This document shows, piece by piece, positions 6,131 through 64,000 of a stretch of DNA of 64,000 bases. The stretch lies in assembly GCF_058153355.1 (NCBI RefSeq), contig NZ_CM177019.1; one strand, written 5' to 3'. The notes beneath the pieces were generated by a model that saw only the letters and a program-made list of their open reading frames with translations, had not been told where the DNA came from and did not search any database. The stretch's first letter is position 1; the number at the start of each line of letters is the position of its first letter. The translations under genes and the position numbers were made by a program.

Positions 6131-6307
6131 TGTCGGATGCGGCGTAAACGCCTTATCCGACCTACGGTTTGCATCGTTGCAGGCCTGATAAGACGCGGCA
6201 AGCGTCGCATCAGGCAACGGCAGTCGGATGCGGCGCAGGCGCCTTATCTGACCTACGGTTTGTGTCGTGTAGGCCTGATAAGACGCGGCAAGCGTCGCAT
6301 CAGGCAT
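6131..6307. repeat. BIME/REP cluster (several inverted REP units)
   Basis: Repeated gcctgataagacgcg...cgtcgcatcaggc and cggatgcggcg...ccttatccg palindromic units. Confidence 0.85.
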
Positions 6308-6319
6308 TACAAGGTGCTG

Positions 6320-6895
6320 CTATTTAATAAACGTAAACGCTGTGGTTACACGTTTTACGCCGCTCACCCGACTGGCAATATCTGCCGCCGCTTTCGCTTC
6401 ACGTTCAGTCACCAGCCCCATCAGGAACACTTCACCGTTTTCGGTGGTCACTTTCACGTTGGACGATTTCACCAGGTCGCTGGTTAAGAGCTGCGAACGC
6501 ACTTTGGTGGTGATCCACGTATCGTTAGACGCTTCGCCCAGACCAATCGGCTGGCCCTGACGAATCTCGTTATACACTTCGTTGGCACCGTCTACGCCCA
6601 TCGCAATTTGTTTAGCGCGAGCCGAAAGTTCAGCGTTTGGTGACTGCCCAACCAGCAGCACTTTGCCCTGATAGGCCGTTACATTAATGCGAGCTTCTTT
6701 CTTGATTTGTTCGTCTTTCGACAATGCGCTGTTCACGCGCACTTCCAGGGTTCCATCGTCCACCTGGGTGCCGACACTGCGTGGGTCAGTTGCGGCTTTT
6801 GTACCCACAGCCGCGGTGCCCACTACGGCGGCAGCAACGCAACCTTGCAACAGCAGTGCGGAAATAAGGACTGCGATTGGCGATAATGCCTTCAT
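6320..6895 (-). CDS. dolP: BON-domain outer-membrane lipoprotein DolP (YraP)
   Basis: 191 aa with lipoprotein signal (LLQGC) and dual BON-like domains. Confidence 0.9.
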   Translation of the reverse strand: MKALSPIAVLISALLLQGCVAAAVVGTAAVGTKAATDPRSVGTQVDDGTLEVRVNSALSKDEQIKKEARINVTAYQGKVLLVGQSPNAELSARAKQIAMGVDGANEVYNEIRQGQPIGLGEASNDTWITTKVRSQLLTSDLVKSSNVKVTTENGEVFLMGLVTEREAKAAADIASRVSGVKRVTTAFTFIK

Positions 6896-22369: not shown

Positions 22370-22901
22370 GAAATGGTGCCCGTAGCTCAACACGGATGTG
22401 TTCGGCGGGCATTGTTCACTGTCCTTTTACAGCCTGTTTTCTGCTCAAATTAGAAGCTTCAGCAAAGGTAATGCAAATGCATTATTAACAGCAGAAAGCG
22501 CCAGAACCAACGAAAAAAGAGAGCATGTTTCCCATTTTGCGAGGCGCTTTCCAAATCACCCGCTCAGTCCCCTCGCGTTGCAGTGCTAAAAGCACTATTT
22601 TGCAAATTTGTGACCTTCTTCACTCTCCCAAAAGGCGGTGATCTCACGGTGGGGATCCACTTTCTGCTTTCGCTTTTCTGCCGTTAGCACTCGCTATTTC
22701 GGCATCTCTTCTTTTCACTTTTTCAGTTTGTCATTTTCATTTGCGGTCAACCGAAAGTTCTGGAGTCGATTTTTCCAGGTTTCAACGCCGTTGTCGCGTT
22801 CACAAATTCACTTCTTTTCTTCTGATGTAATGCATTCAAAAGAAAATGAAAGCTGCAAAATGCAAGAATGCAACTAAATACTTTTTCAGGGAGCGATAAA
22901 C

Positions 22902-23672
22902 ATGCTAGATAGCCTAAGACGCCGCGAACAAATCATTGATTTGTTATGTGCCCAGGGAAGCGTACGCGTTGAGCCGCTCAGCATCCATTTTGGTGTCTCA
23001 TCGGTCACGATCCGCAATGACTTACGGTATCTGGAGCAAAAAGGTTGCGTCATGCGTTCCTATGGCGGTGCCGTGTTGAATCAACACTTTGCGCTCGACA
23101 GACCCTTGCAGGATAAAGATCGCCTTAATCGTGATGTTAAAGTGCGAATTGCCGAAAAAGCGGCCAGTTTTGTCAAAGATGGCGATACATTAATTATCGA
23201 TTCTGGTTCAACGACCACGCTAATTCCCGCTTCGCTCAAAGGGCGTCGGGATTTAGTCGTCATGACGAATGCCTTGAATATCGCCTGGGAAATGGCCAGT
23301 TTTGAACGGGTGGATGTTATGATCCTTGGTGGAAATGTTCGCCAGAGCGTCTACTCCCTGTATGGGCCTTCGGCAGAACAACAACTCCGGCAGTATCGCT
23401 TTGATAAGCTGTTTCTGGGCGTGGACGGCTTTTGCCTTGAAGCAGGGATTACCACGCCACATCCGGGTGAGGCACATCTGAACCAGGTGATGTGCCAGGT
23501 TGCGCAGGAAATTACTGTTGTCGCGGACTCCAGTAAATTTGGCCGCAAAAGCTTCTGTATGATCGGTGAAGTGAGCGAGATAGATCGACTGATTACCGAT
23601 AGCGGTATTCCGGAGAATTACAAAGCAGCATTAACGCAAATGGGTGTGGAAGTTGTGATTGCTGATGAGTGA
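22902..23672 (+). CDS. DeoR-family transcriptional regulator, AgaR paralogue (accessory)
   Basis: 256 aa; N-terminus RREQIIDLLCAQGSVRVEPLSIHFGVSSVTIRNDLRYLEQKG parallels AgaR; good RBS (GGGAG). Confidence 0.85.
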   Translation: MLDSLRRREQIIDLLCAQGSVRVEPLSIHFGVSSVTIRNDLRYLEQKGCVMRSYGGAVLNQHFALDRPLQDKDRLNRDVKVRIAEKAASFVKDGDTLIIDSGSTTTLIPASLKGRRDLVVMTNALNIAWEMASFERVDVMILGGNVRQSVYSLYGPSAEQQLRQYRFDKLFLGVDGFCLEAGITTPHPGEAHLNQVMCQVAQEITVVADSSKFGRKSFCMIGEVSEIDRLITDSGIPENYKAALTQMGVEVVIADE

Positions 23673-23676
23673 GAAA

Positions 23677-23708
23677 ATGTGGCTGGAGATAAACGTCGCC
23701 AGCCACAT
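23677..23708. terminator. Hairpin between convergent DeoR regulator and ROK kinase genes
   Basis: tgtggctgg...ccagccaca inverted repeat. Confidence 0.4.
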
Positions 23709-23716
23709 TACGTTAT

Positions 23717-24628
23717 TCAGGTTGCATGTTCGATTTGCAGCAACGCCGCGCCTCGTACACCGCTCGTTGCTCCGTGAATGGCAGAAAATACGCGCGCAGG
23801 TTCCAGTCCAGGAAGAAGATAACGCGTCATAGCTTTCGGCAATAACGTGTAAATTTCTTTGAAGTTAGACACACCGCCGCCAAGAACAAATGCATCTACG
23901 TCGAGAATATGCTGCAACTGTGCCAGCGTACAACCAACCATATCTATCCAGGCGCTAATGGTGGTGATGGCACTGGGAACGCCACGTTGATGATTTTCTA
24001 ACAATGTCTCCATAGTGATTTGCTCATCGCTGAAATGCTTATGTAACCAGAGCAAGCCAGGACCGGACTGGTAGCGTTCCAGGCACCCTTGCAAACCGCA
24101 GCCGCATTGTAATTCAGGCAGGTTATAGCGCCGCGTAAATGTCGCCGGGAGCGGTAAATGGCCAAACTCGCAGGCCATACGGTTACGGCCACGGTACAAC
24201 TGGCCATCAATAACTAATCCCCCGCCCATACCCGTGCCGATAATCGCGCCAAAGATCCGACTATATTGACGAGCTTGATCGGTATGCGCTTCTGATAGGG
24301 CGAAGCAGCAGCAGTCATTATCCATTATTACCGGGCGGTTAAGGCGATTTGCCAGATCGGTTAACACCTGGCGTCCGGTCAGGCAGGGAACGTTAGAAGA
24401 CAACAGTTTACCGGTGTGCCGATCCATAACGCCGGGCATCCCGATACCTATTTTGCCTTGCGTACCCGTGGCCCAGTCAGCGGTATCAATCAGAGACACA
24501 AATGTGGATAGAAAAAGCGCGTAATCCTGAACAGGCGTAGCTACCCGCTTGCGCCAGCAAATTTGTAAATCCTGATCAAAGGCGACTATCTCTGTTTTGG
24601 TTCCACCAATATCAACACCGTAAAACAT
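23717..24628 (-). CDS. ROK-family sugar kinase, NagK-like
   Basis: 303 aa; DIGGTK N-terminus and CGCG..C zinc motif as in N-acetylglucosamine kinase. Confidence 0.85.
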   Translation of the reverse strand: MFYGVDIGGTKTEIVAFDQDLQICWRKRVATPVQDYALFLSTFVSLIDTADWATGTQGKIGIGMPGVMDRHTGKLLSSNVPCLTGRQVLTDLANRLNRPVIMDNDCCCFALSEAHTDQARQYSRIFGAIIGTGMGGGLVIDGQLYRGRNRMACEFGHLPLPATFTRRYNLPELQCGCGLQGCLERYQSGPGLLWLHKHFSDEQITMETLLENHQRGVPSAITTISAWIDMVGCTLAQLQHILDVDAFVLGGGVSNFKEIYTLLPKAMTRYLLPGLEPARVFSAIHGATSGVRGAALLQIEHAT

Positions 24629-24646
24629 CGCTCATCTCCTTTGGTT

Positions 24647-25903
24647 TCACAGCACAACCAGGGTATTTTCCTTGCGAGCGCGTTCGGCGGCAAAGACCAT
24701 TAAATGACTTTCGAGCGATTCATCTGGTCCTGAAAGGATCATCGCTCGATCGTCAGCCATCACGGCATGGATAAAGCTGTCCATCAGATAGTAATCACCA
24801 CCACCGTGCCCTCCCATTTGGGTGTGAGTGCCTGCGTTTTTCTCTTCAACGGTGTAAATAGTTTCCTGGTCGGTGAGAAAATCAAAACACCGAATGGTGT
24901 TGCCATCGCCTTCCAGATAACCTTTCGAACCGAAAACTCGGGTTTTGCGATCCTCCATTTTCGTAAAGGCTGTCATTGTAAAAGTGACGCTCTGCTGATG
25001 CGCAAACTGCATGTTTACCACTTGATGATCAACAACATCGTTATCGCAGCAATAAACACAGCGACCATAGGGGCCGTCACGCAGGGCCTGACGAATATTC
25101 TCTTCAGTAGGATTTGGTGTTAACACGTGGCGAAAGTGAAACGTACATTTATGGGCTTCGCCAGCATAAATTTTGCATGCGGACCACGGGCAGGTCGCTT
25201 CTGCCTGGCAATCGAGACAGCGTTCGGCTGCGCCTTCAGGTTGGTTTTGTTTTACAAAATGGTTGAGCCCGCCAAATGAGCTAACGGTTTTACAGTTGTC
25301 TCCCATGATGTAGCGGATCCAGTCCAGATCGTGGCAGGACTTTTGTAACAACATAAATGATGATTCAGCCTCGTTGCGCCAGTTACCACGCACAAAAGAG
25401 TGTGCCTGGTGCCAGTAACCGACGGGTTCGAGATGCTGCATACTGATAATGTCGCCAATGATGCCGCTATCGAGTAAGAATTTGAGTTTTTGTGTATATC
25501 GGGTGTAACGAAGAACGTGTGCGACGGCTAATAAGACATTATTGCGTTTGACGGCATCAATGATAATGCGGCAATCGTGCTCTGTTGGCGCGAGCGGTTT
25601 TTCCAACAGAATGTGGTAACCGAGATCGGCAAAAGCGACGGCCGGATCTCTATGCATATTGTCTTGCGTACAAATAAGTACAGCATCAGCCATTTTTGGC
25701 CGAGCAGCAGCCTCTTTCCAGTTGCTAAAAATATTATCTGTCGGGATCGTATGCCGGGACACAACTTGCTCGCGGTAAGCCTCTCTAGGTTCAGCAACAC
25801 CTACCACTTGCATTCTGTCCGGATGCTCAAGGGCATAGCGGGAATATATTTCTCCACGTGCGCCTGCACCTATTACTAAAACAGTGACTTTATTTTTACT
25901 CAT
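24647..25903 (-). CDS. Gfo/Idh/MocA-family NAD(P)-dependent oxidoreductase with Cys-rich insert
   Basis: 418 aa; Rossmann N-terminus (VLVIGAGARG), EKP motif, Cys cluster CLDCQAEATCPWSACK...CVYCC. Confidence 0.8.
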   Translation of the reverse strand: MSKNKVTVLVIGAGARGEIYSRYALEHPDRMQVVGVAEPREAYREQVVSRHTIPTDNIFSNWKEAAARPKMADAVLICTQDNMHRDPAVAFADLGYHILLEKPLAPTEHDCRIIIDAVKRNNVLLAVAHVLRYTRYTQKLKFLLDSGIIGDIISMQHLEPVGYWHQAHSFVRGNWRNEAESSFMLLQKSCHDLDWIRYIMGDNCKTVSSFGGLNHFVKQNQPEGAAERCLDCQAEATCPWSACKIYAGEAHKCTFHFRHVLTPNPTEENIRQALRDGPYGRCVYCCDNDVVDHQVVNMQFAHQQSVTFTMTAFTKMEDRKTRVFGSKGYLEGDGNTIRCFDFLTDQETIYTVEEKNAGTHTQMGGHGGGDYYLMDSFIHAVMADDRAMILSGPDESLESHLMVFAAERARKENTLVVL

Positions 25904-25945
25904 ATAAAGAAATACCTTTCTGATAAATTCATCTTAATTGCTACG

Positions 25946-26704
25946 TTATAAATTACGAAAACTAACAAGATGAAATCCGTGTTTTTCAATCGCATATTTG
26001 AGTGACGGTGTAGTCAGAACCGTAAGTTCTTCCAGCCGTTGATAGCAGTAACTGCTCGACATTAAGTGGTTATCTACGAATCCAGGGTGACACATAATTT
26101 CCAGCGATTTTTCATCACGTTTTATGGCGCTATCGAGGAGTGATAAAAAAAAGTCTTCTGAAATATTATTATCGTAGAAATTACTGCTGAATCCCTCACT
26201 ACTTTTGGCATCCAGCGAATCGATTTTTTTCTCTCGCAGAACAGAATGGTCTATACGTAATGGTAAATTTTTCTCACGCGCGAACCGCGCGACAACGGGA
26301 TAAACCTGCGGGATCATATGAACGCTGTGATGGCTGTCTAAATGGGTGGGCTCCCGTTTAAATACATCAATAAAACGTTGATATTGAGAACTCAGTTCCT
26401 GTTCAATTTCACCCGTGTTTAATTGCCCTTGCTCCGCGACATCCCAGATCCATTTACCTAATTGGCCTGCGCGTACCAGCGAAGGCATATCCGTTAAGGC
26501 GGCGCCATAGCTCAAAACAAAATGTAACCCGACGCCGAGCTGTGGGGTTTCGGCACTTAAAGAGGCAGCATGATCAATTGCCGGAGCATTCATCATCGCA
26601 GTTGTTGAGCGAACGACACCATTTCGTACTGCCTCGATAATTCCATAATTAATACCTTTACTTAGTCCAAAGTCATCCGCATTCACAATTAATAAGCGTT
26701 GCAT
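25946..26704 (-). CDS. YdjC-family carbohydrate deacetylase (ChbG-like)
   Basis: 252 aa; NADDFG and HLDSHHxVH motifs. Confidence 0.85.
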   Translation of the reverse strand: MQRLLIVNADDFGLSKGINYGIIEAVRNGVVRSTTAMMNAPAIDHAASLSAETPQLGVGLHFVLSYGAALTDMPSLVRAGQLGKWIWDVAEQGQLNTGEIEQELSSQYQRFIDVFKREPTHLDSHHSVHMIPQVYPVVARFAREKNLPLRIDHSVLREKKIDSLDAKSSEGFSSNFYDNNISEDFFLSLLDSAIKRDEKSLEIMCHPGFVDNHLMSSSYCYQRLEELTVLTTPSLKYAIEKHGFHLVSFRNL

Positions 26705-26716
26705 AAGGCGTCCTTG

Positions 26717-28069
26717 TTATTGATGAGATTGGGTAAGTTCAGCAATGGTGCTGGAAAATTGAGGCAGATGTTTTTTATGGGCAATGATCAGTTCACGTAC
26801 TAATTTTTCAGCGTCGTTATCCGAGGTCATTAGCGGGTTAAGGCACAGAGCCAGCAGCGTATCGTTATAGTTACCACTTATTGCCGCCCGGGCTGCCGCA
26901 ATCTCAAAACATTTGATTGAATGAATGAGCCCCAGTACATTTTCGTCAAAATGAGTGAGACGCGGGTGGGGGGTAACACCGTTATTCCCCAGAATGCAGG
27001 TCATTTCAACGGTCCAGTCTTCAGGGATATTTTTTACACTGCCCTTGTGTGGAATATTAACGTAGTGTTCTGTTTGCGTGTCATTATAAATTGCATTAAT
27101 AACGGCACAGGCTGCATCTGAATAATACGCACCACCACGCAGATCCAGTTCTTCAGGTTTTGTATTTAGTTCTGGGTTCTTATACAGCTCAAATAATTTT
27201 CTCTCTAATGCCTGCACGACTTGTGCACGAACGCCATTTTTATAAAATTCCCCCATCTCAATAGCGAGCATTTCTTTATGTTTAAAATAGTAACGTAAGT
27301 AAGCACAGGGCAGGAGATTAAGTGCCCGAATTAAATTAGGATTGAAGGTTAAACTGTCAATATTTTTGACGGTACTTCCTTCAAGCAAACCTTCAACGAC
27401 GCCATCGAGCAATTCAGCAAAACGTGATTGTCCATTGACCCATACGTCTTTAAGAAAGACCATATGATTTAAGCCAAATATGTCTATTGAAAGATCATCG
27501 TCCGCGCCAAGTTTTAGGGCATTGCGAACGAAGCTCTTCATCCCAATAGGGACATTACAGACACCGATAAACCGTTTAAATTGGGTATGGCGGTACACGG
27601 CTTCAGTAACCATCCCGGCAGGATTGGTAAAATTAATAATCCAGGCATCAGGGCAAAGTTCCTCAACATCTTTGATAATATCAAAAACTACTGGAATGGT
27701 TCGTAACCCGTTGAATAAACCGCCCGCGCCATTGGTTTCTTGCCCGAGATATCCCTGACTTAGTGGAATCAACTCATCCATTTCCCGAGCTTTTAATTGC
27801 CCGACCCGAAATTGTGTGGTGACAAAGTGCGCGCCCTGTAATGCAGCGCGACGGTCAAGTGTTTTCACTATTTTTAACGGAATGCCAGCTTTTATCACCA
27901 TCCGCTGACAAAGGTCGAAAATAATGTCCAGCTTTTCTTTGCCTTCTTCAATATCAACTAACCATAATTCACTGACCGGTAATTCATCGTAGCGTTTTAT
28001 GAATCCTTCAAGGAGTTCTGGTGTATAGCTACTGCCACCGCCAATAGTAACGATTTTTAAGTTTTTCAT
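26717..28069 (-). CDS. Glycoside hydrolase family 4 6-phospho-beta-glucosidase (ChbF-like)
   Basis: 450 aa; strong similarity to ChbF by recall (IGGGSSYTPELLEGFIKRY, NFTNPAGMVTEA). Confidence 0.9.
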   Translation of the reverse strand: MKNLKIVTIGGGSSYTPELLEGFIKRYDELPVSELWLVDIEEGKEKLDIIFDLCQRMVIKAGIPLKIVKTLDRRAALQGAHFVTTQFRVGQLKAREMDELIPLSQGYLGQETNGAGGLFNGLRTIPVVFDIIKDVEELCPDAWIINFTNPAGMVTEAVYRHTQFKRFIGVCNVPIGMKSFVRNALKLGADDDLSIDIFGLNHMVFLKDVWVNGQSRFAELLDGVVEGLLEGSTVKNIDSLTFNPNLIRALNLLPCAYLRYYFKHKEMLAIEMGEFYKNGVRAQVVQALERKLFELYKNPELNTKPEELDLRGGAYYSDAACAVINAIYNDTQTEHYVNIPHKGSVKNIPEDWTVEMTCILGNNGVTPHPRLTHFDENVLGLIHSIKCFEIAAARAAISGNYNDTLLALCLNPLMTSDNDAEKLVRELIIAHKKHLPQFSSTIAELTQSHQ

Positions 28070-28145
28070 GTTACTTCCATACTCAATATTAAATTGACTT
28101 GTGATGCCATGGTTTATCTAAACGCTGGCATGATGAAGCGTGCTA

Positions 28146-29506
28146 TTAAAACTTTAATGCATTGGCAATGTCTTCTTCGCTTTCTTGTTTAATTATTTCA
28201 ACTTGTGCTTTGTTTGAGATAATGACAAAGGGAAGATAAACCATTGTGGCAACACCTAAGTTAAAGAGCGCCAGGAGTAATCCAGCAATGCTTCCATTCG
28301 AGCTAAAGAACGCATTGAGTCCAGGAGGCATGGTCCAGGGGGCAATATTTGTTGATGGCGGAATAATACCCATGTTATAGGCGATTAAGGTAATCCCGGC
28401 GAGAATGGGTTGAATCATCACAAACGGGATTAACATAATGGGGTTCATAATGATCGGCAAACCAAATAAAATAGGTTCGTTGATATTAAAGATACCAGAA
28501 GGTAACGCTAATTTAGCAACCTGACGATAATCTTCCCGGCGTGACGCAATGAAAATGGCGAAAATGAGTCCCAGCGTTGCCCCTGTTCCACCGAGGAACA
28601 CGTAAGCGTCAAGCATTGGCCCGGTCCAGAAATGGAAGGTTTTTCCTGCTTCCAGTGCCGCTTGTACTGAACCATATTGTGTATAGGTGGCGATATTCTC
28701 CAGTCCCCACGGACCCAACGTGCTGCTTTGCAACGCGGTTAATACTAAGCCGCCGTGGATACCAAAGAACCATAACAGGGAATTAAAGACAACGAATGTC
28801 CAGCCAACAATACCGCTCATTGACGTTAATGGCGTAGCCAGTGAGGTGATAATGACCTGATGGAAATTGGTGCCATATATCGACAATATCCCAGACAAAC
28901 TACCCATAATTAACAGGATGATAAACCCGGGCACCATTGCTGAGAATGAGCGTGATACTGCGGCCGGAACACTCGCGGGCAACCGAATCACCCAGTTGCG
29001 GCGGATAATAAAAGCGAAAATTTCCGCTACAACTAATCCAATGATCATACCAGACAGAATATTGGCGCCGCCTAACCAGTTTGCACCAATGACATTAGCG
29101 GTTTCTCCTGCCTTGAAGGGGGTGACAGTCATAAACGCTGCGACAGAGAGTAAGCCAACGGATAACGAATCAACTTTCCGTTCTTCGGCCAACCCCATCC
29201 CAATAAAAAAGGGGGTCATGAGTGACATAATGCCCAGCGTGCCATGATAAGCACTGTCACCGACGACGGTGAAGGCGCTTAAGGTTTTTATGGTCGATGG
29301 TTCCAGTCGGACGCCTAATGAATAAAAAAGGAGCCTTCGCCAAAATCTAAAAAAACGCTATTAATGAGGACAAATAACGTACCGGCTAACGTTAATGGCA
29401 TCATACGGATAAAACCGTTTTTTATTGCATTGACGTGAGGTTGTTTCCCTAATTTAACTGCAAAAGGAAGAATGAGTTTTTCAAGTAACGCCATCACTCC
29501 GGGCAT
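28146..29506 (-). pseudogene. PTS lactose/cellobiose-family EIIC (ChbC-like) split by a frameshift
   Basis: N-terminal 63 aa (29506-29315, ...[12 protein letters not shown]) and C-terminal 360 aa (from 29228) are in different frames; the second frame reads FYSLGVRLE... upstream to the junction. Confidence 0.75.
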
Positions 29507-29575
29507 AAAAATATCCTTATATACCGATTAATGTATCACTGCGACTTTGGTTTTATTAATATCCTGTTGCTATGG

Positions 29576-29893
29576 TTACTTTTGCTCTTTTTTTATTATG
29601 GCGATAGCTGATTTTAGAACACCTAAGCCATCAATTTTTCCATATAACATTGAATCAATAACTTCCACTGGCTTTCCTGGTAATAAGCTTTGGATCTCTG
29701 ATTGCATGTAAGCAATTTGAGGTCCCAATAATATAACATCGGCTTCCGGCCCTTTCTCTGCGGCAACAGATTCGGAGAATGCTTCGATAATTACTGGCAC
29801 ATCATATTTTATCGCCTGCACTTTCATTTTTGACACCAGCAGTGATGTTGACATTCCCGCTGAACAAAATAAGTATATTTTTTTCTTTTCCAT
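29576..29893 (-). CDS. PTS lactose/cellobiose-family EIIB (ChbB-like)
   Basis: ORF 29576-30109; start at [20 protein letters not shown] (phospho-Cys motif), ~105 aa. Confidence 0.85.
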
Positions 29894-30278
29894 AGGGACT
29901 CCAGATATATTACGTAATAATATATTTGTCATGCCATGAATGGCATATGAGGCGACTTTAATTAAAAAGGCACGGATGTTTATATTGATTTCCTGAATGT
30001 CGTCTTTTGGTATTAATCTCAAAAATTTCAGGAGCCATTGAATAATCTGGTTTATAGGATTGAATGTCAAGAGAGTGAAATTGTGGGCGTGTTGTAATAA
30101 AAATAGCACGGCTTTCGGTAGGTTTCTTTTTTAGCGGAATGAAAAGTACAGGCAAAATGGTAATTGAATAAATTAACGTTTTTTCAATAGATTACGTTTT
30201 TTCCTGCCTACAGGAATGAAAAAAACAACAATCTAAAAATACTTTAGATATGTGAGAGTTATCACTTACTTTTCGTGG

Positions 30279-58739: not shown

Positions 58740-59402
58740 TTACCCCCGATTTCCATATTTCTTTTTCCATAACACGACCAGAGAACCTGCCAGGCCAAAC
58801 ACCAGCAGCACCACCGGGAGCAGCATCAGGCATGACATCAGCTGGTCCTCGTACTTTAAAAATACCGGCGTTTTGCCGAGCATGTAACCCAGAGTTGTCA
58901 GGATTAATACCCACAGCAGACCGCTCATCCAGTTGAAGAACTGAAAGCGCGCGTTATTCAGCCCTGATAACCCGGCAATCGTCGGCAGCAGTGTTCTGAC
59001 AAACGCAATAAAGCGACCAATTAACAGCGCCGATAAACCGTGTTTATGAAAAAGATGGTGTGCGCGTTGATGATAATGCGCGGGTAAATGAGATAGCCAG
59101 TTTTGTACGGTGCGGGTATTGCCCAGCCATCGCCCCTGAATATAGCTGACCCAGCAGCCGAGGCTGGCGGCAACGGTCAGTAGCAGAATCGTTTGCGGAT
59201 AGCCCATCGCGCCTTTCGCAATCAATACGCCGACCAACACCAGTAAACTGTCGCCCGGTAAAAAGGCCGCCGGAAGCAAGCCGTTTTCAAGGAACAAAAT
59301 TACAAATAAAACAAAATAGAGCATGCCAATCATCGACGGATTGGCCAGGGTTTCAAAATCCTGCGCCCACAGGGCTTGCAGCAATTGGGTCAAAAGTTCC
59401 AT
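58740..59402 (-). CDS. yqjA: DedA-family inner-membrane protein YqjA
   Basis: 220 aa DedA/SNARE-associated family. Confidence 0.9.
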
Positions 59403-59746
59403 TCATTATTCCTGGTGAATCGGTTAACGCCACGCTGGTTTTAAAAGATGCACTACCGCAATGTTATTGCTTTTTTGGTATGTTCTGCGGGTTTGATACA
59501 TCAACACAGCCTGAACTATTCCCTGTTAAATCGTGAGATAAGAAAGCATTCAAAAGCATAAATTCAAATTGAATCTAATTGTAACAAAGGTCAACGTTGT
59601 TCGTTATCAAAATTACATGTCCGTGGTGTCTGATTTTGCTGAATGCAGGGGAGGGTGGCGAGAGGATTTACACAGGCTGACACTTTATACTTTTCGCTTA
59701 CCGACGAGGCAAACAGGCGCGTCGTTGCGCCTGCCGAATGGGGATT

Positions 59747-60523
59747 TCATTTGCTGCCGCTTGTGGCCGTATCAAGATGCACAACGGGATTTTCGGCGAA
59801 CAGATAGCGGTCGGCATTGAACTCGAAATCGTCGCTGGTTTCGTTAAATAACATGATCTTGGTGTTTTCCAGGTGCTGCCACATTGCCAGCTTAGCAGCA
59901 TGGGGATCCTTGCGAATTAACGCTTTGAGGATCTGATCGTGGTCATCGCACCAGTTATCGACAGTACGGGCATCAATATGCTCGTGCAGTTTTTTCCAGT
60001 ATGGGTTATGGCCACGTTGGGTCCACATTTTTTCAACGATGGCTGCCAGGGCGGAGTTCTGCGTCGCCAGGGCAACCTGAATATGGAACTGTAAATCCCA
60101 TTCGGAATCACGGAAGCATTGTTCGCCGCGCGCCTGCTCCTGGATGGCCATCAGTTTCATGATGTCCTGTTTAGTTACCTGGGTCGCTGCGAACTCGGCA
60201 ATATTACTTTCGATGAGCTGACGTGCCTGAAGCAGCTCAAACGGACCGTAATTGGCGAATTCCATATTAGTGTCAGCCGACTGCTGATGGCGCGGCTGGT
60301 TGGAAACCACATGAATACCCGAGCCTTTACGCACCTCTACATAGCCTTCAACTTCAAGCATGATGATGGCTTCACGAACCACGGTGCGACTGACGTTTTT
60401 TTCATCGGCAATAAAGCGTTCAGCAGGCAGTTTATCACCCACCAGATAGACGCCCTGTTCGATGCGCTCTTTCAGATCAGCGGCAAGTTGTTGATACAAA
60501 CGGCGTGGTTCAGTGATTTCCAT
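59747..60523 (-). CDS. exuR: GntR-family hexuronate regulon repressor ExuR
   Basis: 258 aa, GntR HTH + FCD domain. Confidence 0.9.
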
Positions 60524-60816
60524 ATGCGTCTCCCGGAGTGGAATGCGGACAAAGTTATCATACCACTTTATTCAAGGGTATGCCACGGTAGTTTTATTAC
60601 TCGCATCTATCTAAAATTAATATATATATGTATTTTTTATCTTTATATATTCCTAAATTTCAGCAGGTGATATTGCTGTGGTCTATATTTTTCAGTAAGT
60701 TAACCATTCTTTCAGAAAATACAATTTATATTGTCAATAGATTATTGCTTTGACATTTACCCTCTCAATCAATCTAATGTGCGCATTCGGTAACTTTCGT
60801 AAAAGAAAATATCATT

Positions 60817-61527
60817 GTGAAATGCATAAGAGTTCTATTTGTTCTGGTTTGTATTATTTTATTTTGGTCAATGCCAGGACAAGCAAATATGACGGTCTAT
60901 CCTATGTCTGTATCTATAAACAGTCAGGGAGAAGGAAGTGTTCGTGTAATATCGAAAACGGATGAAGTACAATATATAAAGGCAACAGTATTTCGTATCG
61001 ATAATCCATCAACACCACAAGAAAAAGAAATAGAAGTAACTTCAGGCGATGCAAACCAACTAGTGGTGATACCGCCCAAATTTGCTTTGCCTGGCGGTAG
61101 TAGCAAAACCGTACGTTTTGTGGCAATGGAACCTGAGCAAAAAGAAAAAAACTATCGGGTTAAATTTGCAGCTGTACCCAGCATTGATGATGCAACAGCT
61201 AATAAAAAAGATCTCTCCATGCAATTAACGGTTAACTTAATTTGGGGGATTGTTGTCAGCGTGCCACCTCAGCAGCCTGTGGCAAAGTTAGATATAAATG
61301 CCGATAAAAAGTTAATCAATAATGGCAATCAACGTCTTAAGATATTAACCATTGACTATTGTAAAAAAAGTGGCTCTGCGGAATGCAGAACACAGACCGT
61401 AAATAAAAACATTTTCCCTGGTCAGGAAAGAAGTTTAGAAGGCATATCTGGCTACGATAAAATCGTTGTCAAATATAATAACTGGATCACCAAGGATAAT
61501 GGCGAGTTTGAACTGGCGGTTCATTAA
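60817..61527 (+). CDS. Periplasmic fimbrial assembly chaperone, CS1/CFA-I (class 5) type, putative
   Basis: 236 aa, GTG start, signal peptide, low-GC; first gene of chaperone / major subunit / usher order. Confidence 0.6.
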   Translation: MKCIRVLFVLVCIILFWSMPGQANMTVYPMSVSINSQGEGSVRVISKTDEVQYIKATVFRIDNPSTPQEKEIEVTSGDANQLVVIPPKFALPGGSSKTVRFVAMEPEQKEKNYRVKFAAVPSIDDATANKKDLSMQLTVNLIWGIVVSVPPQQPVAKLDINADKKLINNGNQRLKILTIDYCKKSGSAECRTQTVNKNIFPGQERSLEGISGYDKIVVKYNNWITKDNGEFELAVH

Positions 61528-61556
61528 TTATCATTGTAATAAACAAAGGAATAGTA

Positions 61557-62057
61557 ATGAAAAAGGTATTCGCAAAATCCCTTCTGGTAGCGGCAATGTT
61601 TTCCGTTGCAGGTTCTGCATTAGCAGTACAAAAAGATATCACTGTTACTGCCAACGTTGATGCTGCTCTGGATATGACTCAGACAGATAACAGCGCACTG
61701 CCGAAAGCAGTTGAAATGCAATATCTGCCGGGGCAGGGCCTGCAATCTTACCAGTTAATGACCAAAATCTGGTCAAATGACACGACCAAAGACGTGAAAA
61801 TGCAGTTAGTTTCTCCTGCACAACTGGTTCAAAGCCTGGACGCTACTAAAGTTGTTCCGCTGACTGTTACCTGGGGCGGTGAAGAGATTAAAGCTGATGC
61901 GGCAACCACTTTTACTGCAACAAAAATCTTTGCTTCCGATGCGTTAACTAACGGTTCGCTGGCTAAACCACTGATGTTTGCTCAAGCCACCAAAGGTGTT
62001 CTGGAAACAGGTATTTACAGTGGCGTAGTCAGCATTTATCTGTCCCAGGATATCTAA
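61557..62057 (+). CDS. Class 5 (CFA/I-CS1-like) fimbrial major subunit
   Basis: 166 aa; signal peptide then AVQKDITVTANVDAALDMTQTDNSALP, resembling the CooA/CfaB N-terminus by recall; C-terminal GIYSGVVSIYLSQ. Confidence 0.7.
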   Translation: MKKVFAKSLLVAAMFSVAGSALAVQKDITVTANVDAALDMTQTDNSALPKAVEMQYLPGQGLQSYQLMTKIWSNDTTKDVKMQLVSPAQLVQSLDATKVVPLTVTWGGEEIKADAATTFTATKIFASDALTNGSLAKPLMFAQATKGVLETGIYSGVVSIYLSQDI

Positions 62058-62147
62058 TCCTAATAACAGAATTAACATGTAATAAAGGGAGGAAATTCCT
62101 CCCTTCTTTTAACTATTTTAGTATTTATTATGGATTACAGGACTGCC

Positions 62148-64000
62148 ATGGATAAAAAACTACTGGCTCTTTTGATCCTGGCGAGTATCAGCCCGGCAAA
62201 GGCAACATTAACAAAAATCCCCGCTGGTTTCGAGATTATTGCTCAAGGACAGCAGGAGTATATCGAGGTTTATTTTGCAGGGAAAAGTCTCGGTAAATAC
62301 TATGCAATGGTTAATCTTGATACCATAACATTTCTGGACTCATCGAGTTTATACAGTAAACTGGAATTGAACACCGACGATCAAAAAATCGCACGTACAG
62401 TGAAAGAAAAACTATCGCAACCGTTAGCTCGCCATGGTGAACTGGCTTGTGGCTTTGTACGTACTGATTCAGGCTGTGGTTTTCTTAATACTGAGACGGT
62501 AGAAATAATCTTCAATGATGAGGAAAGTTCAGCAACGCTCTTTCTCAATCCGCAATGGAGTTCTGCGTTTGATACGAAATCATTGTATTTAAATCCTGAC
62601 AAAAATACGGTTAACGCGTTTATACATCAGCAAGATATTAATGTGCTGGTACAGGACGATTACCAATCGTTGTCAATTCAAGGTAATGGTGCGCAGGGAA
62701 TAACAGAAAATAGTTATATTGGCGCCCACTGGAATTTCAACGGTTATGATGGTGATGATATCAGTGACAGTAATGCTGATGTCAGCGATCTCTATTATCG
62801 CTACGATTTTTTACGTCGTTATTATGTGCAGGCGGGGCGGATGGACAACCGCACATTATTTAATGCACAAGGTGGTAACTTTACGTTTAACTTTCTGCCA
62901 CTCGGTGCAATCGACGGAATGCGTATCGGGTCGACGCTCAGTTATTTAAACCAGACGCAAAGCCAGCAGGGAACCCCGGTAATGGTTTTGCTTTCGCGCA
63001 ATTCACGTGTTGATGCTTATCGTAATGAACAACTTTTGGGGTCGTTTTACCTCAATAGCGGTTCGCAATTTATTGATACCAATTCCTTTCCGCCAGGCAG
63101 TTACAGCGTGGCGTTAAAAGTCTATGAAAATAACCAACTCACCCGCACTGAGCTCGTGCCATTTACCAAAACCGGCGGTCTGACAGACGGAAATGCCCAG
63201 TGGTTTTTACAGGCGGGGAAAACCACATCTCAAGCTTCTGATGATGAAAGTTCGGCTTATCAGCTGGGTGTGCGCCTGCCATTACATCCGCAATATGAGC
63301 TCTATGCAGGGCTGGCGAATGCAGATGATGTTAGTGCCTTCGAGTTAGGCAATAACTGGACAGCAGATTTAGGCGTGGCAGGGAATCTACTCATCAACGC
63401 CAGCGTGTTCCGTAACGATGATGGTGGCAAAGGTGATATGCAACAGGCTAACTGGAGTCAATCGGGATGGCCGACATTGGGCTTTTATCGTACCAACTCT
63501 GATGGTGATGTTTGTACAACCGACAACCGAGAAAGCTACAACGCCTTAAGCTGTTATGAAAGCATCTCCGCGACGATTTCACAGAATCTTGTAGGCTGGA
63601 ACATGATGCTGGGTTATACCCGTACGCAAAATAACACGAATGACAATCTGCGTTGGGACAAACAGCAGAGCTTTGAAAATAACTATCTTCGCCAGACGAC
63701 GGCGCAAAGTATTTCCGAAACTTTACAACTCAGTGCTTCCCGCGCTTTCGTGATGCGTGACTGGATTTTGAGTACTACTGTTGGTGTTTTCCATCGTAAT
63801 GACAATGGGGATGATAACGACGATAACGGCTTGTACTTATCGTTTTCGTTATCTGATACGCCAACGATGGATAGCAATAACAACAGCTATTTAACCAATG
63901 TTTCTACTGACTATCGTTATAGCGATCAGGATGGCGATCAAACGTCATGGCAGTTATCTCATACCTTTTATAACGACTCATTCAGCCATAAAGAGCTTGG
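62148..64000 (+). CDS. Fimbrial outer-membrane usher (class 5-like), N-terminal ~617 codons; continues past window end
   Basis: Long open frame from ATG 62148 to window edge (MDKKLLALLILASISPAKA signal), N/D/Y/G-rich beta-barrel-like sequence. Confidence 0.65.
   Translation, partial: MDKKLLALLILASISPAKATLTKIPAGFEIIAQGQQEYIEVYFAGKSLGKYYAMVNLDTITFLDSSSLYSKLELNTDDQKIARTVKEKLSQPLARHGELACGFVRTDSGCGFLNTETVEIIFNDEESSATLFLNPQWSSAFDTKSLYLNPDKNTVNAFIHQQDINVLVQDDYQSLSIQGNGAQGITENSYIGAHWNFNGYDGDDISDSNADVSDLYYRYDFLRRYYVQAGRMDNRTLFNAQGGNFTFNFLPLGAIDGMRIGSTLSYLNQTQSQQGTPVMVLLSRNSRVDAYRNEQLLGSFYLNSGSQFIDTNSFPPGSYSVALKVYENNQLTRTELVPFTKTGGLTDGNAQWFLQAGKTTSQASDDESSAYQLGVRLPLHPQYELYAGLANADDVSAFELGNNWTADLGVAGNLLINASVFRNDDGGKGDMQQANWSQSGWPTLGFYRTNSDGDVCTTDNRESYNALSCYESISATISQNLVGWNMMLGYTRTQNNTNDNLRWDKQQSFENNYLRQTTAQSISETLQLSASRAFVMRDWILSTTVGVFHRNDNGDDNDDNGLYLSFSLSDTPTMDSNNNSYLTNVSTDYRYSDQDGDQTSWQLSHTFYNDSFSHKEL

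Follow-up and report, generated by a model that had tools for sequence, protein, structure and literature searches.

A CS1-like (class 5) fimbrial operon between exuR and exuT of Escherichia, with a divergent promoter-chaperone cassette

Introduction

What lies next to exuR when exuT does not? In the stretch of DNA analysed here (64 kb, hereafter the window), exuT sequence is absent throughout, and the hexuronate regulator gene exuR is instead adjoined by low-GC reading frames that a preliminary description assigned to a fimbrial operon. This raises the questions of which fimbrial family these genes belong to, how they came to lie beside exuR and whether they are likely to serve in making a pilus.

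We conclude with considerable confidence that the window holds the 5′ 3.4 kb of the chromosomal alpha-clade (class 5, or 'alternate') operon called 'CS1-like' or eafABCD, a low-GC island of ~5.4 kb and four genes flanked by the exuT terminator and the promoter region of exuR. The locus is already known: it is annotated by RefSeq, was described in E. coli SE11 in 2008 under the name 'CS1-like' (ECSE_3375-3378; PMC2608844) and in E. coli W in 2011 as eafABCD 'between exuT and exuR' (PMC3032704). Its recognition in the window is a correct but ordinary finding and the locus itself adds nothing new; the modest new point is a divergent cassette that takes in the promoter region together with four-fifths of the chaperone gene, from its 5′ end.

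Results

Transcribed away from exuR, the operon comprises genes for a chaperone, a major pilin and an usher, all three seen in the window (Table 1), with a gene for a two-domain tip adhesin in fourth position in close relatives. The order of low-GC genes given in the preliminary description agrees with both the open reading frames and the base composition (41.4% GC from position 60571 to the window end vs. 49.6% in the remaining window), and the very AT-rich region of ~290 bp that it placed before them measures 293 bp. The exuR gene, annotated at the corresponding position in E. coli records, is 99.2% identical to that of EC42405 and 94.3% identical to that of an empty-site E. coli. All visible fimbrial ORFs (chaperone, pilin and the 5′ 617 usher codons) are intact, and their dN/dS ratios vs. 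other alleles (0.05-0.11) indicate purifying selection; these ratios, together with the Pfam matches described below, mean that the ORFs are not due to chance.

Table 1. Features of the exuR-proximal end of the fimbrial island (positions in the window)
Feature	Position	Strand	Remarks
exuR, GntR-family hexuronate regulator	59747..60523	minus	258-aa ORF; conserved left flank of island
exuR-proximal intergenic part	60524..60569		still aligns with empty exuT-exuR spacer
island-borne AT-rich regulatory region	60570..60816	plus	31% GC measured over 60524-60816
divergent allele cassette, ~806 bp	60586..61391	plus	breakpoints read from alignment
periplasmic chaperone (CfaA/CooB/TcfA type; eafA-equivalent)	60817..61527	plus	236 aa, GTG start
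CS1-type major fimbrial subunit	61557..62057	plus	166-aa ORF
stem-loop and T-rich tract between pilin and usher genes	62085..62113	plus	terminator-like site, 9 pairs
outer-membrane usher (TcfC/CfaC type), partial	62148..64000	plus	frame open to window end

The chaperone, whose GTG start is preceded by a weak ribosome-binding site and whose signal peptide has a predicted cleavage site before NMTVYP, matches Pfam PapD_N (2.4e-7). It is closer to CfaA/CooB than to PapD/FimC: the best match among solved structures is CfaA (7e-32, 35% identity), followed by EcpB (1e-8), SfaE (1.4e-4) and FimC (3e-3), with classical FimC/SfaE-type matches reaching just 1e-4 to 4e-3. The NCBIfam TcfA model also matches (2e-40), under its equivalog cut-off. 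The protein is 80.8% identical to the SE11 chaperone and its dN/dS is 0.08-0.11.

The peptide quoted in the preliminary description as resembling CooA/CfaB-type pilins, AVQKDITVTANVDAALDMTQTDNSALP, corresponds to residues 23-49 of the pilin ORF. The signal peptide ends in ...GSALA and the mature protein begins with VQKDITVTANVD, presumed by analogy with CfaB structures to be the donor strand. This segment aligns with VEKNITVTASVD of CfaB at 9/12 identical residues, and the two pilins are 40% identical overall, so that the resemblance to CfaB holds. The pilin matches Pfam Fimbrial_CS1 (PF04449; 4.8e-23) and, among solved structures, CfaB (3.8e-23), CsbA of CS17 (1.4e-14) and CooA (1.4e-11). An identical protein is encoded by EC42405, 692 index blocks of public assemblies contain it, and it is 95.8% identical to the SE11 pilin; an exact look-up of this protein led to the loci L004-L010.

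The usher frame opens at 62130 or 62148, giving 623 or 617 codons depending on which in-frame ATG is used; the annotated start of the EC42405 usher maps to 62148. Counted from there, 617 codons of a protein of 894 aa lie in the window, which ends 69% of the way through it. The 623 visible residues match the Pfam TcfC E-set (7.8e-20) and Usher_TcfC (2.8e-31) domains, with no match to the classical usher domain PF00577, and the NCBIfam TcfC model matches at 2e-116, under its cut-off. The visible part is 99.8% identical to the EC42405 usher and 92.9% to that of SE11. These TcfC-type-only Pfam matches, with the CfaA and CfaB matches above, confirm the class 5, CFA/I-CS1-like assignment. A classical gamma/pi family, named in the preliminary description as the competing possibility, does not fit better and is ruled out by the weak FimC/SfaE matches and the lack of PF00577 in the visible usher.

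Several well-studied systems share this architecture. CFA/I of ETEC (cfaABCE) has the same gene order, a conserved donor-strand motif and a two-domain adhesin like the CfaE-like one of the relatives, but is plasmid-borne, whereas the locus described here is chromosomal and has no adjoining gene for an AraC-type activator; CFA/I depends on the AraC-family activator CfaD/Rns. CS1 pili of ETEC (cooBACD) belong to the same pilin family with the same architecture, but the pilin in the window is farther from CooA than from CfaB. The Tcf system of Salmonella Typhi (tcfABCD) is similar in that the NCBIfam models TcfA, TcfB, TcfC and TcfD match all four proteins, as the top or sole match for three of them, and in the TcfC E-set and barrel domains of the usher. 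The scores, however, lie far under the equivalog cut-offs (139 vs. 500, 99 vs. 384, 535 vs. 1428 and 117 vs. 589), and the operon is therefore of a paralogous type and not Tcf, which occupies a different genomic site. The cable pilus of Burkholderia cenocepacia (cblBACD) provides the best NCBIfam match of the pilin, CblA, ahead of TcfB, but at 118 bits vs. a cut-off of 225 and in another organism; the cbl locus has regulators of its own. The cut-offs thus rule out orthology to either Tcf or Cbl.

Beyond the window end, the nearest relatives, whose ushers are 99.7-99.9% identical over the visible part, carry the remainder of the usher gene, then a CfaE-like adhesin and then exuT, with all four operon genes intact. 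The fourth gene is found in all close relatives, and exuT lies no more than 88 bp beyond it in EC42405, L008 and five other relatives. The L008 adhesin, named by RefSeq as a CfaE/CblD tip adhesin and with Pfam CfaE_2nd on record, aligns with CfaE across residues 59-357 (E 6.8e-26), spanning both domains; the adhesin of the nearest relatives is 73% identical to that of SE11. In tip adhesins of this kind a conserved arginine, R181 of CfaE/CooD, is needed for binding. The RRYD stretch of CfaE, which we take to hold the arginine required for CFA/I binding, falls opposite a four-residue gap in the pairwise alignment with the L008 adhesin, where the loop alignment is uncertain, and the receptor specificity of CFA/I should therefore not be assumed for it. 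The E. coli W locus shares chromosomal site, gene order and protein families with that of the window, as does SE11's; however, its cluster was said to have no tip adhesin (PMC3032704), whereas the fourth gene of the relatives matches CfaE.

The operon is common. It is carried between exuR and exuT by 1904 of 5426 complete E. coli genomes (~35%), counting those in which at least 80% of a 4.3-kb query was covered. Where the locus is annotated, the genes run in the order exuR, chaperone, CS1 type major subunit, TcfC-domain usher, CfaE/CblD tip adhesin, exuT, and in these E. coli contexts no regulator gene adjoins the operon. SE11 has the locus at exactly the same exuR/exuT site, its chaperone accession being identical to that of L002. 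Two transcriptome studies report mRNA of the pilus operon, one in urine-derived A/B1 UPEC from infected patients (PMC4128348) and the other at higher levels in HUS-associated STEC (PMC6033998). Full-text literature searches returned no functional study of Eaf/CS1-like fimbriae, their production as pili or their binding.

The region upstream of the chaperone gene contains a candidate operon promoter, TTGACA (60750-60755) and TCTAAT (60773-60778) separated by a 17-nt spacer. It was missed by a consensus scan because the scan rule demands an A at the second position of the -10 hexamer. Both hexamers are unchanged between two intergenic alleles whose identity elsewhere is just ~60-79%, consistent with promoter activity. 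With up to 2 mismatches allowed, the Rns/CfaD binding-site consensus TATTTTTTTATC (PMC2579436) does not occur in 60524-60816, the intergenic region; its 21 matches across the window are not concentrated there. A version one base shorter, TATTTTTTATC, occurs at about 60631, before the chaperone gene. In the pilin-usher spacer, the arms AAGGGAGG and CCTCCCTT form a hairpin with a T-rich tract behind it. Eight alleles conserve both the stem and this tract but differ in the loop, and the hairpin is probably a partial terminator setting the pilin:usher ratio. Nothing in 59000-64000 matched a non-coding RNA family at the Rfam gathering score.

The promoter region and most of the chaperone gene stand apart from the remainder of the window. 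Within the cassette, the EC42405 and SE11-type alleles are 78-82% identical to the window, vs. 99.2-99.95% outside it, in a background ~99% identical to EC42405, and the promoter region is largely unalignable with that of the SE11-type allele. The cassette allele is rare and deeply divergent (dS above 1). L008 carries the same cassette (98.3-99.5% identity); among complete E. coli genomes, none exceeds about 84% identity to it. The chaperone protein of the window, taken with either plausible start, matched no protein record exactly.

Discussion

The preliminary description rightly took exuT to be the normal neighbour of exuR, since the two genes lie 129 bp apart in an E. coli genome that lacks the operon, and it left open whether the fimbrial genes are an insertion between them or mark a rearrangement breakpoint. 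The absence of exuT from the window, with the far junction lying beyond 64000, would be expected if exuT had moved elsewhere. However, the window is collinear from end to end with EC42405 (about 98.7% identity), the adhesin gene is followed by exuT in EC42405, L008 and five other relatives, and the same layout recurs in representatives of two divergent Escherichia species, L013 and L014. We therefore retain the insertion, as an island between exuR and exuT, and regard a rearrangement as hardly credible. The island is bounded by the exuT terminator on one side and begins ~47 bp upstream of exuR on the other, with the left junction at ~60569/60570, after ...ATACCACTTT; when the empty site (L003) is aligned locally with occupied ones (L008, L001), the alignment stops at ACCACTTT. 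A low GC content (43.6% vs. 50.9% in the flanks) and a presence/absence polymorphism, with only about a third of E. coli positive, would also fit a mobile element acquired recently by horizontal transfer, but this is improbable: the junctions show no integrase, IS element, tRNA or direct repeats, the same site is occupied in several Escherichia species or cryptic clades, and the alleles differ by a dS of 0.5 to above 1, with a dS of 0.31 for the neighbouring exuR. The shared site and the deep divergence point rather to an island of long standing, later subject to loss and to allele exchange through homologous recombination.

Whether this old island still makes pili in the present strain is a separate matter. 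Many E. coli chaperone-usher operons have been described as cryptic (PMC3559732), and a decaying remnant would be in keeping with the AT-rich regulatory region, with the absence of an activator gene at the locus and with disrupted copies elsewhere in E. coli, such as the frameshifted adhesin of CFSAN027343 (the usher of L006 is also called shorter, at 888 aa); the visible sequence, moreover, stops before the 3′ third of the operon. Against this, the visible ORFs are intact with low dN/dS across a deep divergence, the nearest relatives have four intact genes, and in vivo transcripts have been reported for the E. coli locus. We thus think it unlikely that the operon is such a remnant, although its AT-rich control region does suggest that laboratory cultures express it poorly or not at all.

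On the model of the homologous CFA/I and CS1 systems, a sigma-70 promoter ~30 nt upstream of the chaperone gene would start transcription, and the conserved hairpin after the pilin gene would let just a fraction of the transcripts through to the usher and adhesin genes. The CfaA-like chaperone would cap pilin and adhesin after their export by Sec, and at the TcfC/CfaC-type usher the N-terminal strand of each subunit (VQKDITVTANVD in the pilin) would complete the fold of the preceding one. Such donor-strand assembly would yield a presumably adhesive pilus tipped by the CfaE-like adhesin.

A fuller reading, which we judge to be evenly balanced between right and wrong, is that the exuR-exuT site is an old polymorphism across Escherichia, made up of the presence or absence of the operon and of allele classes separated by the dS values above, and that the operon in the window is a rare hybrid in which the promoter region and most of the chaperone gene entered from an unsampled, cryptic-clade-like lineage through homologous recombination and were joined to a pilin, usher and adhesin of EC42405 type. 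If this is so, the strain may regulate its operon differently, and so divergent a chaperone must still work with the same pilin. Both the mosaic segment and the deep allele classes offer natural variants for tests of regulation and of chaperone-subunit compatibility. The importance of the locus is otherwise modest, that of a CFA/I-like pilus locus widespread in E. coli and present in other Escherichia species. A scan of contigs from other species found 5 loci, 2 of which are evident contaminants or fragments, namely a contig of a Lachnospiraceae MAG and a 426-bp Bradyrhizobium contig with Escherichia-like sequence.

Locus and its insertion between exuR and exuT

The preliminary description, made from the sequence alone, had placed a CFA/I-CS1-like operon beside exuR, and its account of the locus was accurate when we checked the ORFs, the AT-rich region, the gene order and the cited pilin peptide, which corresponds to residues 23-49 of the 166-aa ORF. 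GC content is 41.4% from 60571 to the window end vs. 49.6% in the remaining window, and the island as a whole (about 5.4 kb) has 43.6% GC vs. 50.9% in its flanks. Purifying selection is strong on all three visible genes (dN/dS 0.05-0.11).

Features of the window discussed in the text
Feature	Position	Strand	Size	Remarks
yraQ-dolP spacer repeat	6132-6306		~85-bp unit	two adjacent copies, ~90% alike
naRNA4 match	6182-6253	minus		overlaps repeat copies
agaR-garD interval	~22900-29900
ES036 (CssrF) matches	55887-55927; 56064-56104	minus		yqjG-yqjF spacer
exuR	59747-60523	minus	258 aa	ORF
Intergenic region upstream of exuR	60524-60816		293 bp	31% GC
Counterpart of exuR upstream box	60550-60569			AGTTATCATACCACTT
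Divergent segment	60586-61391		~806 bp
TTGACA	60750-60755			17-nt spacer to TCTAAT
TCTAAT	60773-60778			probable promoter, with TTGACA
Chaperone	60817-61527	plus	236 aa	ORF, GTG start
Major pilin	61557-62057	plus	166 aa	ORF
Stem-loop	62085-62113		9-bp stem	with T tract, between pilin and usher genes
Usher	62130/62148 to last window base	plus		frame open throughout

In annotated records the order is exuR (minus strand), chaperone, CS1-type major subunit, TcfC-domain usher (894 aa), CfaE/CblD-family tip adhesin (358 aa), exuT (minus strand), uxaC and uxaA, while 129 bp separate exuR from exuT in an operon-free genome. exuT is absent from the whole 64,000-nt window, which fits a position about 2.9 kb beyond the window end. 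The preliminary description had allowed for either an insertion or a rearrangement breakpoint at exuR. The latter can be rejected, both from the order of exuR, operon and exuT in the annotated records and from the collinearity of the window with EC42405, a bovine E. coli isolate from France (a 47-kb alignment at 98.7% identity, rising to 99.2-99.95% for exuR, the yqj and pilin genes and the part of the usher inside the window). Together with the comparison of occupied and empty sites, this identifies the operon as an insertion between exuT and exuR. The same comparison allowed us to deduce the junctions: the exuT terminator hairpin (AAGCCGCC...GGCGGCTT) is retained beside the island on one side, and on the other the sequence is retained as far as a point some 47 bp upstream of the start codon of exuR (...ATACCACTTT). 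Neither junction shows direct repeats, an IS element, an integrase or a tRNA.

A megablast search of 5426 complete E. coli genomes with positions 59700-64000 (4.3 kb) found exuR in 5422 and the query, covered over at least 80% of its length, in 1904. The exuR, operon, exuT layout also occurs in representatives of two further, divergent Escherichia species; their yqj genes share about 93.5% identity with those of the window. Two other public records contain Escherichia-type eaf/exuR sequence, most likely through binning errors or contamination: a 'Lachnospiraceae' MAG, on a contig of 5.7 kb, and a 'Bradyrhizobium' assembly, on one of 426 bp.

Family assignment and earlier descriptions

Pfam matches were PapD_N for the chaperone (2.4e-7), Fimbrial_CS1 for the pilin (4.8e-23), and the TcfC E-set (7.8e-20) and TcfC usher barrel (2.8e-31) for the visible usher. 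Among solved structures, the chaperone was closest to CfaA (7e-32, 35% identity), followed by EcpB (1e-8), SfaE (1.4e-4) and FimC (only about 3e-3), and the pilin was closest to CfaB (3.8e-23, 40% identity), followed by the CS17 subunit (1.4e-14) and CooA (1.4e-11). The CfaB-like pilin N-terminus noted earlier was borne out, the start of the mature pilin, VQKDITVTANVD, which is the presumed donor strand, aligning with CfaB VEKNITVTASVD. These matches place the genes in the alpha (class 5, alternate) chaperone-usher clade, in agreement with the original assignment; the far weaker FimC match and the TcfC-type usher exclude a classical gamma/pi family. NCBIfam Tcf models match chaperone, pilin and usher, with CblA as the pilin's top model, but all score far under the equivalog cut-offs, and orthology to Tcf, Cbl, CFA/I or CS1 was rejected.

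A 'CS1-like' operon, ECSE_3375-3378, was listed in the 2008 genome paper of E. coli SE11 as common to E24377A, HS, ATCC 8739, 536 and SMS-3-5, with 71-100% amino-acid identity (PMC2608844). In SE11 it occupies the site between exuT and exuR, and the accession of the chaperone is that of L002, one of our operon-bearing loci. Identity to the SE11 proteins is 95.8% for the window pilin, 92.9% for the visible usher and 80.8% for the chaperone. A 2011 paper on E. coli W gave the operon the name eafABCD and likewise placed it between exuT and exuR (PMC3032704). Both names, 'CS1-like' and eaf, are in use in the subsequent literature; the E. coli locus is reported to be transcribed in A/B1 urinary isolates taken directly from patients (PMC4128348), and its transcript levels were higher in HUS-associated STEC (PMC6033998). 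The operon is already known, annotated and named; our literature search found no publication dealing with how its fimbriae are assembled or regulated or which receptor they bind.

A mosaic promoter-chaperone allele

Against a background that is EC42405-like and 99% identical, a segment spanning the promoter region and the first four-fifths of the chaperone gene stands out as a rare and deeply divergent allele. Its intergenic part aligns only poorly to the alleles of EC42405 and of SE11 type, with which its coding part shares no more than 78-82% identity (dS about 1.1-1.3, vs. 0.5 for pilin and usher between window and SE11 types). Because the segment begins 16 bp inward of the left island junction (60569/60570), the alignment suggests one crossover in or near the conserved exuR-proximal flank and a second inside the chaperone gene. 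The segment recurs in L008 (GCA_002966045.1), the nearest relative, at 98.3-99.5% identity; a large protein-position index has it in only three contigs, against 692 blocks for the linked pilin. Outside L008 its closest allele is that of Escherichia sp. MOD1-EC7003, at 86.5% identity over the 5′ portion of the chaperone gene, with nothing nearer than about 84% among complete E. coli genomes. This segment, the shared layout in divergent Escherichia and an exuR dS of 0.31 vs. empty-site E. coli point to an island that is old, falls into deep allele classes and has undergone both losses and exchange through homologous recombination. Deep alleles, loss and recombination are the usual pattern for surface-structure loci; the mosaic allele is a modest population-genetic point rather than a new system.

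Predicted expression, assembly and adhesin

The TTGACA/TCTAAT pair, which lies some 30 nt upstream of the GTG start codon, is probably the operon promoter, since it is invariant between two intergenic alleles that are otherwise only about 60-79% identical. The stem and T tract between the pilin and usher genes are kept in eight alleles with variable loop sequence, as would be expected of a partial terminator that raises the pilin:usher ratio. By analogy with CFA/I and CS1, the chaperone would cap pilin and adhesin, and the usher would polymerise them via donor-strand exchange into a fibre tipped by the adhesin. No AraC-type regulator gene adjoins the operon in annotated records, and the intergenic region has no match to the published Rns consensus at ≤2 mismatches.

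Upstream of exuR, the empty-site locus L003 carries a palindrome-like box, ATTTGTTATACCACTT (6855-6870, 31-46 bp upstream of exuR), with three mismatches to what we take to be the UxuR/ExuR-type box (chance expectation 0.05). The counterpart in operon-bearing genomes, AGTTATCATACCACTT, has lost this match. Given this loss, and a divergence between the haplotypes that is far greater in the upstream region than within exuR, the two might not autoregulate exuR alike.

The L008 adhesin matches CfaE over both domains (6.8e-26, residues 59-357). In this alignment the RRYD stretch of CfaE faces a gap, within a loop where the pairing of residues is uncertain; as RRYD holds the arginine needed for CFA/I binding, the receptor specificity of the operon's adhesin may differ from that of CFA/I. 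The CfaE match does not bear out the statement in the E. coli W paper that the cluster is without a tip adhesin (PMC3032704). Beyond the window, in the operon-bearing loci L012-L014, the adhesin is by far the most divergent operon gene between lineages (66-81% nucleotide identity vs. 85-91% for the usher), and only the C-terminal pilin-domain part of the L013 adhesin could be aligned; the receptor-binding domain is thus the fastest to diverge.

Other features of the window

The agaR-garD interval is collinear with EC42405, where the annotation gives a cluster of seven genes (a second AgaR-like repressor, ROK protein, Gfo/Idh/MocA oxidoreductase, ChbG deacetylase, 6-phospho-beta-glucosidase, PTS IIC and PTS IIB); SE11 has the prlF-yhaV toxin-antitoxin pair there. 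The repeat in the yraQ-dolP spacer overlaps an Rfam match to naRNA4, a REP-derived nucleoid-associated RNA. The yqjG-yqjF spacer holds two equal-scoring Rfam matches to the sRNA ES036 (CssrF), both barely exceeding the gathering score, and overlapping BLAST pieces in this spacer suggest a length difference of about 200 bp relative to EC42405.
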